From Escherichia phage FL38, in sequence record PP400784: a stretch of DNA of 64,000 nt; one strand, given 5' to 3'. A model generated the notes under the pieces. That model was not told where the DNA came from. It ran no database searches and worked only from the letters and a program-made list of their open reading frames with translations. This document shows, in pieces, positions 9,285-59,774 of the stretch. Every line of letters begins with the position of its first letter. Position 1 is the stretch's first letter. The position numbers were made by a program, and so were the translations under genes.

Positions 9285-9617
9285 TTACAGATGAAAACCT
9301 GTTACGATCACCGCATCGATCATACCGCTAGGAATAAACGGTTCGCCCTCTTTTATTTCAACTTTGAATTGATGCCATTTCGCTAATACTTCTTCCGGTA
9401 CACCCAGCGATTTGGCGTCTGCTTTAGTTTCATCCATAATCCAACTAGGCTGCATGAGAGCATAGTTTACATAGTCCATTTCTGGGGTCATGTCATCAAT
9501 GTTAATATATTTGCAGTTGACGCGTTTCAGAATTTCAAATTCTTTATTGTCAACCTGTACCATGTATAATTCAGTAGTTTCTGGAATCAGTTCCCACACA
9601 ACCAGTACATTTTTCAT
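9285..9617 (-). CDS. hypothetical protein, 110 aa
   Basis: Track ORF in the minus-strand gene train; start not individually verified. Confidence 0.4.
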   Translation of the reverse strand: MKNVLVVWELIPETTELYMVQVDNKEFEILKRVNCKYINIDDMTPEMDYVNYALMQPSWIMDETKADAKSLGVPEEVLAKWHQFKVEIKEGEPFIPSGMIDAVIVTGFHL

Positions 9618-22406: not shown

Positions 22407-23075
22407 TTATCCCCTTTGTTTCTTAACTGAATTTGGATCTGGATTTTCTGGTAGGTCTTCCAGACCCATAGCATAACGTTGTGCATAGATTAGCATAAGA
22501 ATATCGCGAGCGCAATCATGAATTGCATCATGTGCGATAAAACCATCTAGCGTACCCATTGGTAACGGACACTCACACATCCCGCGATGCATCAATGTAC
22601 GCTCAATGGCGGTGCGAACATCTCGGATATTCCAGAATCGCACAGGTTCAAGGCTGAACGTCTCTCGTGTATTGTGTGCACGTCGAATCATATCAACTAG
22701 TAATGGAATATCAAACGCATTACCGCGTGACCACATTACGGATTTAACCGGATCTACCCCTACGGATTCACAGAATGCGTTAAAACGCGCTAAACCTTCT
22801 TTAGTTGATACTTCCGTACCATTTGTGATTAATTGCTTTCTCATGCCTTCTGAGGCGGTATTCTTCCACCATTCAACCACACCATGATCAAACACCCTTA
22901 CACCTTTCTGGGAAGGAATATCAAATTTTACCAGAAAGGAATTGTCAACCAGTTCTTTAAATGTAGGTGGATTGTGCGGATCTTCTTTAAATCCGATTGC
23001 CGCCATATTGATAACCGCCCCATCAGGCGGATAACCTAAACTTTCAAAGTCAATCATTAAATCCACTGGAAGCAT
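22407..23075 (-). CDS. dexA: exonuclease A (DexA), DEDDh-type 3'-5' exonuclease
   Basis: Start set to ATG 23075 (GGAGGA upstream); N-terminal IDFESLG exonuclease motif; size about 222 aa, close to T4 DexA; position between gp39 and dda. Confidence 0.75.
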   Translation of the reverse strand: MLPVDLMIDFESLGYPPDGAVINMAAIGFKEDPHNPPTFKELVDNSFLVKFDIPSQKGVRVFDHGVVEWWKNTASEGMRKQLITNGTEVSTKEGLARFNAFCESVGVDPVKSVMWSRGNAFDIPLLVDMIRRAHNTRETFSLEPVRFWNIRDVRTAIERTLMHRGMCECPLPMGTLDGFIAHDAIHDCARDILMLIYAQRYAMGLEDLPENPDPNSVKKQRG

Positions 23076-25068: not shown

Positions 25069-25382
25069 TATCCTAAAATCCTCACCTTGCGAACACAGAT
25101 AGTATTGAGTTCTCGCCGTACCCGTTCTTTTTCATATTCAGGAATTTTATATTCGATACCATCCCGAACAATTTCAGAAGACCGGATTATGCCAAATTTT
25201 CGTTTAGGTACAACCTTGTATTTCGGTTCACCCGCCAATAGACTCTCACAATAATCTATCTGATCACACATTGACGCTAACGCAGCATCATGTGTTTCGC
25301 AAGTTAGGACGCGACCCTTCGCGTCCACTGAGTATTGAAAGAATCCGTCTTTATCACGATAACATACAGCAAATACATGCAT
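25068..25382 (-). CDS. hypothetical protein, 104 aa (dda.1 position)
   Basis: ATG at 25382; stop overlaps the dda start (TAATG). Confidence 0.4.
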   Translation of the reverse strand: MHVFAVCYRDKDGFFQYSVDAKGRVLTCETHDAALASMCDQIDYCESLLAGEPKYKVVPKRKFGIIRSSEIVRDGIEYKIPEYEKERVRRELNTICVRKVRILG

Positions 25383-26137
25383 TATAAACCTACCTTCGCT
25401 TTCATCAATTCAATCCACGACGCATCAATCGGAAGCCCGTATTTCACGCGTTCTTTTTGTGCTGGCGTTAAGTTCTCATACTTAGAAAGAGATTCAATCA
25501 AAACGCTGGTATATTTTAGCACGATTTCGGTATTGTTTGCAATAGCCTTAAGTTTTTCTTCTTTCTTGTTGATTTCGCTAAGTGCTTGCTTGAGATCTGC
25601 AATTTTCTGATAACGTTCTTCCATACGGAAGAGAGTATTTTTAATCGCTCGCTCGGCTGCCTCTGCTTTCTCCGGTTCGTTGTGCTTTTTATGGCGCTCG
25701 ATTGCTAATTTCTTTTCTTCGATTGCCATTTCCTGATTTTTGATGCGATTCTCGTTAAGTTCGATCCACTCGATGTACTTCGCACGTAGGGCAATTTCAT
25801 CATCAGAAAGTTTACCGTTAGTTCCTAGTTCCTGGATCTCTTTAAGAGATTCGATAGTGTGATTGCCACGGAAAGAATTGTATTTCAGTTTAACCGGAAT
25901 TACATTGCCATCAACATATCCCAGATTGCAATCAATGCGCTCTAAGGAGAGTCCGTCATCACCTTCACCGAAAGCCTCACCTGAATAGGCACAATGAGTC
26001 TGACGGTAAATGTTACGAACAGTGACTAAGCTCATAGAGAAGTCTTTGTTGCGACGTGAAGCACCAGCCATGATAGAGTTCAGCCGGAAAACAACCAGCG
26101 CCAATTCTTCGTTAGATTTAAAAGCAAACAGTTTCAT
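25382..26137 (-). CDS. hypothetical protein with a degenerate HNH-like motif and coiled-coil C-terminus, 251 aa
   Basis: ATG 26137 after AAGGAGAATCAATT; CAYSGEAF...LERID...GNVIPV...NSFRGN resembles an HNH core that has lost its zinc and histidine ligands; syntenic with the srd region of T4. Confidence 0.35.
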   Translation of the reverse strand: MKLFAFKSNEELALVVFRLNSIMAGASRRNKDFSMSLVTVRNIYRQTHCAYSGEAFGEGDDGLSLERIDCNLGYVDGNVIPVKLKYNSFRGNHTIESLKEIQELGTNGKLSDDEIALRAKYIEWIELNENRIKNQEMAIEEKKLAIERHKKHNEPEKAEAAERAIKNTLFRMEERYQKIADLKQALSEINKKEEKLKAIANNTEIVLKYTSVLIESLSKYENLTPAQKERVKYGLPIDASWIELMKAKVGL

Positions 26138-26165: not shown

Positions 26166-26195
26166 TATTATTGTCTATCTGGTTTGTGCTGTCAA
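26166..26195 (-). promoter_or_regulatory. early promoter TTGACA-N17/18-(A)ATAAT
   Basis: Drives 25382..26137. Confidence 0.5.
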
Positions 26196-26198
26196 CAC

Positions 26199-26702
26199 TT
26201 AAATTAAAGAAAATTTGTAAATCTCTATCCGATCGCCATTACACGCGTAAACTTCCTCGATCTCATCAAGGATCATGGTCGTCCCTGTCTTGTATATGCA
26301 CTCGCGCTCATCTGCCAACATAGCATACAAAGACAGTCGAGTAGTCGGATTGTCATACTCTTTAGACACCACTCGGTCAATAGCATGTTCGTAATAATTC
26401 ATGCAAGGCTTGGTAGGTTTTATTGCAATAATCTTTCCTGTTGCATAAACATCGGTCGCAAAGTCCTCTGCTGTTGATTGCAGTGGCGTAAAGCTCATAG
26501 GACGCTCTACAACGAAAGAATCGCCTACAATTAAGGTATCCAGCTTACGACCTTCTCTTTTGCTCACACCGCGATACAAGGCTTCATGATGCACTAACCG
26601 CTCAGTCTTTTCGATCAATCCATTAAGGATCGACATATCGATATTTTCTTTAGAGTTCATCACTTCATCAATGATGTTAAGTTCTTCTGGTGTAAATTGC
26701 AT
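26199..26702 (-). CDS. mono-ADP-ribosyltransferase, ModA/ModB-like (R-S-E class), 167 aa
   Basis: ART triad in the right order and spacing: R in ALYRGVS, S-x-T in PMSFTP, E-x-E in ADERECIY; T4 modA/modB position between dda and gene 56. Confidence 0.55.
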   Translation of the reverse strand: MQFTPEELNIIDEVMNSKENIDMSILNGLIEKTERLVHHEALYRGVSKREGRKLDTLIVGDSFVVERPMSFTPLQSTAEDFATDVYATGKIIAIKPTKPCMNYYEHAIDRVVSKEYDNPTTRLSLYAMLADERECIYKTGTTMILDEIEEVYACNGDRIEIYKFSLI

Positions 26703-26735
26703 AATAAAAAAGCCTCCAATCTTTCGACGGGAGGC
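26703..26735 (-). terminator. hairpin GCCTCC-(12 nt)-GGAGGC plus U-run immediately upstream of the ART start codon
   Basis: GGAGGC TTTTTTATT ATG: the only Shine-Dalgarno for this gene is the 3' arm of the stem. Confidence 0.55.
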
Positions 26736-26771
26736 ATAATAAAACCATTATAGAGTAGTGTCAACTAATTT

Positions 26772-27296
26772 TTAGTAGCCGCGTTCTTGACGGGCGAAGT
26801 TTTCAGCATTTTTCAGATAGTACAGAATAAAGAGTTCTTGAGCGTCAATACCCAGCGGGATCATCTTTGACAGAATGAAGTGGATCGCGTCCACAAATTC
26901 AAATTTCACTTCAAGCTGATCTTCCGGTGACAGTTCAGAGAATTTACGCGCTCGCGCTTCTCCGTGGTTCTTTTTCCACATTTTCCAGATTGCACTTGCA
27001 TCTTTACCATTGGACATTCCACCCAGCGATGTGTAAAGCTCTCGTGTTTCGTCTGCGATAGCGTCATCCATCCGTTGCATCCAATCCAGCATTTCACCGC
27101 AAGTCTCTAGCTTAGTTGGATTTGGGACCCAATCAAATTTTTCGGATAATGCAACCTGCAAACCAGTTTGCATTTCGAGCATCACCTGAAACGGATCTTT
27201 ACCTTCTGCAATAGCGTGATGATATGCGGCGATAGCCGCGTTAATATCTTTTTCGTTAACCAGACCAGCACAAGAATTAAATTCTGACATATTCAC
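26772..27296 (-). CDS. 56: dCTP pyrophosphatase (gp56, MazG-like)
   Basis: 174 aa; long C-terminal match to remembered T4 gp56 (KDP.QVML.MQ, KLET.G, SPEDQLE.KFE..D..HF.L, LYYLKN.ENFARQ.RGY); adjacent to gene 61. Confidence 0.75.
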   Translation of the reverse strand: MNMSEFNSCAGLVNEKDINAAIAAYHHAIAEGKDPFQVMLEMQTGLQVALSEKFDWVPNPTKLETCGEMLDWMQRMDDAIADETRELYTSLGGMSNGKDASAIWKMWKKNHGEARARKFSELSPEDQLEVKFEFVDAIHFILSKMIPLGIDAQELFILYYLKNAENFARQERGY

Positions 27297-27304
27297 CTCA
27301 TTAA

Positions 27305-28333
27305 TTAAAATTTACAATATTTCATAAACCGCATTTTAGCCATCAGACCTTGTACGGTGTTCTCTTTGATGTATTCCATGATCTGGTCGCGTGTAGCGCC
27401 CTCGTCCTGAATCATGGCGTTAACGTCTTTAGAATGCCACGGGCAACGATCCCACAATACAATCTTTTCCCCTGCATTGATAAACTTTTCCAGTCGGTGC
27501 ATTGTATCGGCAGACCGTGGTTCCGCATCAAGTACAAACACTCGCTGGTCTGGGAAAGGGATTTCATCTAATCCCAAAGTACCGCCAGTAATTGCACACC
27601 CGTTATCAATAAACAATGAATCGATCGGACCTTCTAAGAAATACACTGGTTTACTCGGATCGGCGCGTTCAAGACCATAGACCTTACTCGCTAACTCGTG
27701 AGTTTTAATCGTCATATATTTGGTCTTTCCGTAATCCTTTCTCAATGCTCGCCCCTGAATGGATTCTATCTTGTTCTCGCGGTTAAAGATAGGAATCACT
27801 AAACGCGGTTCAGGTTGTGGATTCTTGAAAGTATCAGCCTTAATGTGATTTGCTACCTTTTGCCATTCTCTCGTGAAATACAGAAGATCCCATTTATCGT
27901 GAGGAATACAGCGATCACTGACATACTTTATTATAGGATGATTAGCCGGAAGAGTATCTAATCTCTCGCAGAAAGGCAATGTTTGCACTTTCTTAATCTC
28001 CGGCTTTTCTACCTTTTTCAGTGGCTTGAACGTGGTGTTCTTGTGGTCGCCTTGTTCCTTCCGTCGTTCCATAAGCCATTCCCTGAATAGGTCCGGCTTA
28101 TACTGTTTGAGAAATTCACCTAACGGCTGATTGTAGTTACAGTTGAAACAGCCGCAACGCAAACTATCCTTATAGGTATAGATACGGAATCGCGCTTGAG
28201 TATGATTTTTCTTTGAGTCACCGCAGATCGGACAACTACAGACCAGCGTAAATGAGCTAGTATGCAACCGTTTAAAATTTCGTTCGCCGTATATGGCTTT
28301 TTCCGCTATTTCATAATCTGCGTAGTAAATCAT
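27305..28333 (-). CDS. 61: DNA primase (gp61)
   Basis: 342 aa, same as T4 gp61; N-terminal Cys4 zinc-binding motif (CSCPICGDS...CGCFNC); between gene 56 and gene 41. Confidence 0.85.
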   Translation of the reverse strand: MIYYADYEIAEKAIYGERNFKRLHTSSFTLVCSCPICGDSKKNHTQARFRIYTYKDSLRCGCFNCNYNQPLGEFLKQYKPDLFREWLMERRKEQGDHKNTTFKPLKKVEKPEIKKVQTLPFCERLDTLPANHPIIKYVSDRCIPHDKWDLLYFTREWQKVANHIKADTFKNPQPEPRLVIPIFNRENKIESIQGRALRKDYGKTKYMTIKTHELASKVYGLERADPSKPVYFLEGPIDSLFIDNGCAITGGTLGLDEIPFPDQRVFVLDAEPRSADTMHRLEKFINAGEKIVLWDRCPWHSKDVNAMIQDEGATRDQIMEYIKENTVQGLMAKMRFMKYCKF

Positions 28334-59745: not shown

Positions 59746-59774
59746 AGTATAGGGGATCACCGATCCCCTGTCAA
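59746..59774 (-). promoter_or_regulatory. early promoter TTGACA-[GGGGATC-ACC-GATCCCC]-TATACT, palindromic spacer with two GATC sites
   Basis: Palindrome at 59752-59768; near-identical to the cassette at 11534-11562. Confidence 0.6.

Follow-up and report, generated by a model that had tools for sequence, protein, structure and literature searches.

We propose that modB of Escherichia phage FL38 is expressed from a compact cassette of the promoter-early stem-loop (PeSL) type, in which the gene's own early promoter escapes a terminator hairpin and the hairpin insulates the gene against transcription from upstream; we put the probability of this reading at about 65%. First, the 69-nt intergenic region between gene 56 and modB would combine an early promoter of the sigma-70 type, an intrinsic terminator and the ribosome-binding site (RBS) of modB. 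Second, RNA made from the upstream replication-gene unit would contain both arms of the hairpin, fold as GCCUCC-N12-GGAGGC-U6 and mostly terminate before the modB ATG, and in molecules that are nevertheless read through, the Shine-Dalgarno (SD) sequence would be locked in the stem and translation would be poor. Third, RNA polymerase starting at the modB promoter, at about 26729 or 26728, would make an mRNA that is without the hairpin and has its GGAGG free for translation. In other words, ModB synthesis would be tied to an immediate-early promoter of its own and shielded from upstream transcription, an insulation that would suit a potentially toxic host-takeover enzyme. The arrangement is a new instance of a cassette type and a translational logic that are both known already.

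The window, by which we mean the whole stretch of DNA that was analysed (64 kb; sequence record PP400784), comes from an RB49-like T4-type phage; sequence identity of the region is 99.9% with the Krischvirus phages Delraymugoa and Aragogtheria and 98.8% with RB49, a "pseudo-T-even" T4-type coliphage. All genes of the 61-56-modB-srd-dda region, and all elements of the cassette described below, lie on the minus strand. Gene 61, which encodes primase (27305-28333 in the list of open reading frames), is followed by the dCTPase/dUTPase gene 56 (26772-27296), the final gene of the upstream unit; its product matches phrog_173 (E=5e-37) and Pfam dUTPase_2 and is gp56 in RB49, and its TAA stop codon lies at 26774-26772. 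The modB-like open reading frame (ORF) of 167 aa extends over 26199-26702, stop codon included, starts with the ATG at 26702, and is annotated as modB in the RB49 GenBank record. The next gene in the 3' direction is srd (25382-26137), followed by a Y01A/dda.1-like ORF and then dda. According to the RB49 tables (Nolan et al. 2006, PMC1524935), the last predicted promoters of the upstream unit that runs through 61 and 56 lie at about 29392 and 29552, and the previous terminator is located after uvsX. Before srd, the next early promoter is observed at 26167-26195 (TTGACA-17-AATAAT; RB49 Pe:8927), without a hairpin and with a free SD sequence (AAGGAG). With this srd promoter the modB cassette ends on its downstream side.

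Early promoter and predicted transcription start

Both the promoter and the terminator were predicted for RB49 by Nolan et al. (2006, PMC1524935), as the early promoter Pe:9496 and the TransTerm terminator "modB<--56". In FL38, the gene 56 stop codon is followed by an A/T-rich stretch that resembles an UP element (AAATTAG, 26771-26765), in line with the published PeSL description (PMC2839356). A promoter scan places the -35 box TTGACA, which falls inside Pe:9496, at 26764-26759 and the -10 box TATTAT at 26741-26736; TAAAAATTAG lies 5' of these boxes. With the 17-nt spacer ctactctataatggttt, the promoter TTGACA-17-TATTAT agrees with the sigma-70 consensus at 11 of 12 positions. In GenBank record HE978309 (GEC-3S), the two boxes are annotated at the same bases as minus_35_signal and minus_10_signal. 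The -10 box, which ends at 26736, directly adjoins the 5' arm of the hairpin, which begins at 26735.

The usual distance from a sigma-70 -10 box to +1 is 7-8 nt. With this spacing, the predicted start of modB transcription is C26729 or G26728, and three points agree with it. First, the 51-nt promoter model of Nolan and colleagues covers RB49 9446-9496, equivalent to 26728-26778 in the window, and its 3' end falls on 26728. Second, the early promoters of RB49 are C-rich at -3 to -1, a feature that fits the mapped 5' ends (Nolan et al. 2006, PMC1524935), and CCC precedes G26728. Third, many other cassettes in the window read TAnnnT-actCCC-A, with a stem that ends at -1. We infer that transcription of modB starts at 26729/26728, just past the 5' arm of the hairpin. 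The 5' arm occupies the promoter discriminator, at about -7 to -1, and because it precedes the predicted start it would be found only in RNA made from upstream. The window is rich in such cassettes: promoter-like sites with at least 10 of 12 consensus positions number 63 on the minus strand versus 11 on the plus strand, and in many of them a GGGG...CCCC stem lies between the boxes or covers them.

A start further upstream would lead to a different picture. If transcription began 5' of 26735, with the TATAAT at 26752-26747 as one possible -10 box, the hairpin would stand in modB's own mRNA. It might then attenuate translation constitutively or stabilise the 5' end, so that a toxic ADP-ribosyltransferase (ART) is kept at a low level, which is essentially the headline of the first-pass annotation. 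The TATAAT hexamer is perfect, and an RNA starting at 26735 has its SD sequence fully paired in the folds. However, the only -35 partner at 16-18 nt is CTAAAA, which matches 3/6 positions and is not usable, and the TATAAT is lost in JSE, FL20, pEJ01 and the diverged relative L004, while TTGACA-17-TAT[T/G]AT is kept in relatives instead; this alternative -10 box was rejected. Moreover, an mRNA with the hairpin and U6 would bring about its own termination ahead of the ATG, and the -10 box in both the published and the GenBank promoter predictions is the downstream one. A hairpin-bearing modB mRNA is therefore considered very unlikely. A temporal switch through a T4-style late promoter was rejected as well: the late promoter sequence TATAAATA is absent from the minus strand of the 64-kb window, where its single copy is on the plus strand at 2941, and the modB promoter is of the sigma-70 early type.

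Terminator hairpin and accessibility of the Shine-Dalgarno sequence

The hairpin lies 3' of the gene 56 stop codon. Its 5' arm GCCTCC (GCCUCC in RNA; 26735-26730) and its 3' arm GGAGGC (26717-26712) form a 6-bp stem with five G-C pairs, and the 12-nt loop between them, CGUCGAAAGAUU (cgtcgaaagatt in DNA; 26729-26718), contains an inner stem of 3 bp (GUC/GAU) and a GAAA tetraloop of the GNRA type. The 3' arm is followed by a U6 tract (T6 in DNA; 26711-26706), then by ATT and the ATG at 26702. The folding energy of the 38-nt hairpin segment was -15 kcal/mol, compared with -5.3 +/- 2.2 for shuffled sequences (z = -4.36), and none of 200 shuffles was equally stable. The TransTerm terminator "modB<--56" (RB49 9430-9453, confidence 100; Nolan et al. 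2006, PMC1524935) maps exactly onto 26712-26735 of the window, and in the records of Makalu_002 and Makalu_003 (MN709127, MN882349) the terminator is annotated with a ribosome_binding_site inside it. Termination is predicted to occur 4-9 nt 5' of the modB ATG. A simple terminator scan with a loop limit of 8 nt missed the hairpin because its 12-nt loop exceeds that limit, and folding confirmed it; an Rfam search of the region returned two sub-threshold chance matches, neither of them on the hairpin.

The GGAGG at 26717-26713, within the 3' arm, is the SD sequence of modB, exactly 10 nt 5' of the ATG. It is the sole SD sequence of the gene, and the spacer CUUUUUUAUU between GGAGG and ATG contains no second SD-like sequence. 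The first-pass annotation had described the stem and its U-run as the terminator of the gene 56 transcript and the GGAGG of the 3' arm as the only RBS; the former is in agreement with the TransTerm score and the z value, and the latter was confirmed by the sequence and by an SD scan. Processing by RegB at this site was considered and rejected, as GGAGGCUUUUU does not match the consensus GGAGRAYARAA of strong sites (PMC3014915). Dozens of other PeSL cassettes in the window keep the SD sequence separate from the stem.

The accessibility of the SD sequence was expressed as the mean unpaired probability of GGAGG in ViennaRNA partition-function folds, calculated for each RNA 5' end. This probability was 0.000 in read-through RNA (5' end at 26900 or 26830) and in RNA with the complete hairpin (5' end at 26735), 0.11 for a 5' end at 26733, 0.26-0.29 at 26731-26730 and 0.52-0.60 at 26729-26725. 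A start at least 3 nt further upstream than predicted could therefore still allow part of the stem to form and leave the SD sequence less open. Because the predicted start lies past the 5' arm, modB's own mRNA should be unable to form the hairpin; its RBS is predicted by the folds to be open, and the terminator and SD trap to exist only in RNA from upstream. It had been suggested in the first-pass annotation that translation of modB depends on hairpin formation and might differ between read-through and locally initiated transcripts. The folds reproduce such a difference (0.000 versus 0.52-0.60), but the main modB mRNA is predicted to be without the hairpin. The implication of its headline that modB is held back by the hairpin does not stand, since the gene has its own strong and conserved early promoter, which had been overlooked and whose predicted start lies past the 5' arm. 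A dynamic hairpin switch probably does not operate at modB.

It is also conceivable, though unlikely in our judgement, that the overlap of SD sequence and terminator is incidental, i.e. that the hairpin is the terminator of the gene 56 unit, that termination is nearly complete, and that the 3' arm happens to be the SD sequence of the next gene. This differs from the proposed insulation of modB only in whether sequestration is selected. An overlap of this kind is expected because the intergenic region is only 69 nt long, and the strong stem with its U6 tract and a TransTerm confidence of 100 point in the same direction, as do the PeSL stem-loops tested elsewhere, which cut expression like the rrnB T1 terminator (PMC2839356). 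With an efficient terminator, read-through RNA would be scarce, and sequestration of the SD sequence would then be a by-product of compaction. However, among 184 SD-bearing candidate starts in 64 kb, modB is the only real gene start with its SD sequence in a terminator arm, despite the dozens of PeSLs present, and one diverged relative, described below, argues against coincidence as well.

Conservation of the cassette

DNA matches to the 121-nt region were found only in 58 Krischvirus records (95-100% identity), and the intergenic region has none outside these records. Searches of viral, metagenome and protein-cluster data led to only three diverged relatives, drawn from metagenomes and IMG/VR: L003, L017 and L004, with 74%, 75% and 63% amino acid identity, respectively. 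In an alignment of 11 sequences, TTGACA is invariant, the -10 box reads TAT[T/G]AT and the U-run consists of 5-7 T. The stem of L004 is GCCCCC/GGGGGC, a compensatory change from U:A to C:G, and the adjacency to the -10 box is kept; its tetraloop, GAGA, is still of the GNRA type, and an A is located 7 nt past its -10 box. Against an incidental overlap, the two arms of L004 have changed together and GGAGG has become GGGGG, which is a weaker SD sequence, so pairing has been preserved at some cost to the SD sequence. In the covariation analysis, 99% of cells were paired, with 1 compensatory pair, and 56 of 500 shuffles were as good; these statistics are weak because they depend on a single compensatory event among three diverged loci.

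The identity profile along the locus is a stronger sign of constraint than pair covariation. In L003, identity to the window is 96% in gene 56, 98.6% in the cassette, 69.8% in modB, 100% in the next intergenic region and 95% in srd. The corresponding values in L017 are 72.6%, 94%, 70%, 97% and 90%, and some 175 nt (about 26825-26650) stand out as a conserved island between regions of 73% and 70% identity. The L004 cassette is only 78% identical overall, yet both promoter boxes, the stem pairing, the U-run and the SD sequence are kept. JSE and G37-3 carry an inserted gene for an HNH homing endonuclease, whose boundary coincides exactly with the -35 box. This pattern of identity is the one expected if promoter-bearing intergenic linkers allow modB alleles to be exchanged, as in the PeSL shuffling model, and modB can be flagged as a gene that may move between phages as a cassette, with a conserved intergenic island on either side.

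Such exchange might itself be what the cassette is chiefly selected for, as a PeSL linker at the DNA level through which homologous recombination swaps modB alleles, with the RNA features secondary. The conserved flanks of the diverged modB in L003, the island in L017 and the homing-endonuclease boundary in JSE and G37-3 are consistent with this possibility, and so is the published model of module exchange through mini-circles and shuffling (PMC2839356). A role as DNA linker nevertheless leaves unexplained why each RNA and promoter element is kept in the diverged L004 cassette, and as the main explanation we find it unlikely. It is compatible with the insulation of modB from upstream transcription.

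The Mod-type protein and comparison with known systems

The first-pass annotation had read the 167-aa ORF as a ModA/ModB-like ART with an R-S-E triad. The ORF was confirmed on the minus strand with its active-site residues in YRG (R44), SFT (S70) and ERE (E132-R-E134), and R44, G45, S70, E132 and E134 are invariant in alignments of 5 and 12 sequences comprising T4 ModB/ModA and 11 family members. The profile phrog_832, "RNA polymerase ADP-ribosylase", matches residues 2-163 (E=7e-21), PF26816 (Mod_ADP_RT) is precomputed on homologues that are 98%, 74% and 63% identical to the modB product, and a profile search leads to T4-type ModA/ModB clusters. An hmmscan with a Pfam set without PF26816 gave nothing significant (best DUF5507, E=0.12), NCBIfam has no model that matches the modB product or T4 ModA/ModB, and a PDB sequence search with the modB product returned no match at E<=10. 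An AlphaFold2 model built from a 12-sequence alignment has a pLDDT of 90.8 and a pTM of 0.84. With this model, Foldseek found 107 PDB chains at E<=1e-3, and the best 50 of the 107 are all R-S-E ART toxins; the top matches, Certhrax, CDTa, VIP2, C3 and iota Ia, have a probability of 1.00 and E values of about 4e-7 to 2e-5. The assignment to the Mod family of R-S-ExE ADP-ribosyltransferases is thus well supported by sequence comparison and structure prediction. Mutation of R73A/G74A in T4 ModB abolished both ADP-ribosylation and RNAylation (PMC10468400), and R44-G45 of the modB product is in register with R73-G74; an arginine-specific ADP-ribosyltransferase activity is predicted.

In T4, ribosomal protein S1 is the main target of ModB, in both ADP-ribosylation and RNAylation. 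S1 also helps ribosomes to open structured initiation regions. If Krischvirus ModB also modifies S1, hairpin-bearing modB RNA, made by read-through or from starts slightly further upstream, would lose its translatability as ModB builds up, which would amount to autoregulation of a toxic ART; separately, modB might be a swappable effector cassette between two conserved promoter islands. Both ideas are long shots.

At the level of sequence, a promoter discriminator, a terminator stem and an SD sequence share about 35 nt in a T4-type phage, and if the insulated arrangement proposed here holds, an immediate-early host-takeover enzyme would be made only from its own promoter. The cassette could be regarded as a compact natural insulator part. 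It is also a warning for annotation, since translation is not necessarily poor when the RBS lies within a terminator. The modB cassette opens no new biological question and is a tidy but ordinary case of known phage regulation.

The modB product and gene can be compared first with their T4 counterparts (Tiemann et al. 2004; Wolfram-Schauerte et al. 2023, PMC10468400). The protein shares R-S-ExE residue for residue with T4 ModB and ModA and belongs to the same Pfam and PHROG families. In BLASTP searches, E was 7e-11 against T4 ModB (33% over 113 aa) and 2e-6 against T4 ModA (23% over 159 aa), which suggests that the product is slightly nearer ModB than ModA, a marginal difference to be read together with the single gene per genome and the large divergence; Krischvirus genomes have one Mod-type locus and those of the Tequatrovirus type have two. 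At 167 aa, the FL38 protein is shorter than T4 ModB and ModA (207 and 200 aa); relative to the T4 enzymes it lacks some 30 residues at the N-terminus and an insertion of 12 residues that precedes the ExE region. The map position between gene 56 and srd/dda and the early promoter directly 5' are shared with T4 modB, whereas GGAGG is free in the T4 modB leader, which has no hairpin, and lies in the hairpin arm in FL38. The likeness to C3-like and binary toxins (Certhrax, CDTa, VIP2, C3bot, iota Ia) is at the level of the fold only: the catalytic fold is shared (TM about 0.5-0.6 normalised to the query), but identity to the modB product is 9-16%, and these toxins are secreted and have eukaryotic targets.

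The second comparison is with the PeSL cassettes of RB49 and phi1 (Arbiol et al. 2010, PMC2839356; Comeau et al. 2014, PMC4122927), of which 51 have been counted in RB49 and 52 in phi1 (PMC2839356). These cassettes consist, in order, of a stop codon, an A/T-rich stretch, sigma-70 boxes, a stem-loop at which transcription from upstream is terminated, and the SD sequence with the ATG; the stem-loop takes one of five positions, one class being 3' of the -10 box and just before the start site, and representatives at other RB49/phi1 loci behaved in tests as very strong promoters and efficient terminators (PMC2839356). The main text on PeSLs names g43, nrdD and hoc, and modB is not among them (PMC2839356). 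The modB cassette shares with PeSLs the phage group, the order of elements and a conserved island at a module boundary; its stem-loop, for which a terminator role is predicted, comes right after the -10 box, as in the "downstream of the -10" class, and its SD sequence and start codon are at the 3' extremity (GGAGG-N10-ATG). Three differences are observed. First, the modB stem has its C-rich arm first (GCCUCC...GGAGGC), whereas the RB49/phi1 consensus, which is frequent and not obligatory, is G(n)-loop-C(n); with this orientation the G-rich 3' arm can serve as SD sequence. Second, the SD sequence of modB is the 3' arm itself, while the published PeSL description draws the SD sequence separately and does not mention an overlap; modB would be a PeSL whose stem doubles as RBS. 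Third, modB is a gene of known function and not an ORFan.

The third comparison is with T4 genes whose RBS is sequestered. Long transcripts of T4 e, soc, 49 and I-TevI keep the RBS sequestered, and it becomes free in those that begin inside the hairpin (PMC3014915). The first-pass annotation had pointed to comparable sequestration in T4, and the logic proposed for modB matches that of these four genes. In them, the SD sequence or AUG lies in a helix whose 5' strand is upstream of or within the promoter, and the in-silico folds of modB, together with the -10 box that adjoins the 5' arm, would place it with sequestration of the T4 type. The map region of soc resembles that of modB: in the T4 record (L002), the soc hairpin with its TATAAATA late promoter can be read 3' of gene 56, from which soc is separated by a homing-endonuclease gene. 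Unlike the T4 cases, the modB helix doubles as a complete intrinsic terminator, U-tract included. Moreover, the T4 genes use late promoters (gp55, TATAAATA) that delay expression, whereas modB has an early sigma-70 promoter. At modB, an immediate-early gene would therefore be insulated from the upstream unit and not delayed in its expression, and the T4 logic of starting inside the hairpin would be extended from late to early promoters.

Probable allele exchange and an insertion at the modB locus

Two features were observed around modB, the gene for the ModA/ModB-type ADP-ribosyltransferase (ART). First, in L003 and L017, the loci of two diverged relatives, the modB coding sequence is a different allele that is roughly 70% identical to that of the window, whereas the intergenic regions on either side of the gene are 94-100% identical to the window; these conserved islands bound modB at 26825-26650 and 26205-26138 (- strand). 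In L003, the genes neighbouring modB are likewise 95-96% identical, and in L017 the conserved island lies between a 73% region (gene 56) and a 70% region (modB). The pattern looks like a cassette exchange of the ART effector between conserved promoter islands. Second, in phages JSE (L007 1-700) and G37-3 (L008 1-700), gene 56 and modB are separated by an inserted HNH homing-endonuclease gene that is encoded on the other strand. The insertion corresponds to window position 26765, and homology to the window restarts precisely with the -35 box TTGACA.

Promoter stem-loop cassettes and a predicted paired ribosome-binding site

Dozens of cassettes of the promoter-early stem-loop (PeSL) type were observed across the whole window on the - strand, for example at 59774, 55874, 54964, 53729, 51226, 50080, 20305, 19936, 11562 and 11340. 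[quoted passage not shown] Two more - strand cassettes have the stem-loop directly 3' of the -10 box, at 33085-33000 (TATAAT-GGCGGGTG...ACCCGCC) and 22222-22150 (TATGAT-tgTTGCAGCCG...CGGTTGCAg), and in both of these the Shine-Dalgarno (SD) sequence is outside the stem and no U-run follows it. Throughout the window, 63 promoter-like sites scoring at least 10/12 were found on the - strand, compared with 11 on the + strand. The T4-type late promoter motif TATAAATA occurs once in the 64 kb, at 2941 (+ strand), against a chance expectation of 5.4, and almost the entire window is early-region DNA.

At about 23100-23060, a paired SD was predicted for the ORF starting at 23075 (222 aa, - strand): its GGAGG (spacer 9) would pair with a CUUCC located shortly after the start of the coding sequence, and has a computed probability of being unpaired of 0.008. 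This predicted structure could serve local translational control or coupling.

Mod-family genes among T4-type phages

In some Krischvirus records, the stretch from srd to gene 56 is only about 91% identical to the window, yet the modB cassette is still 100% identical; among these records, ModB is 99% identical in at least KFS-EC. When the phage collection was searched with window 26199-26702, one Mod-family locus per genome was found in Krischvirus, in comparison with two (modA and modB) in many other T4-type genomes, e.g. Mosigvirus and JS10/JS98-like phages.
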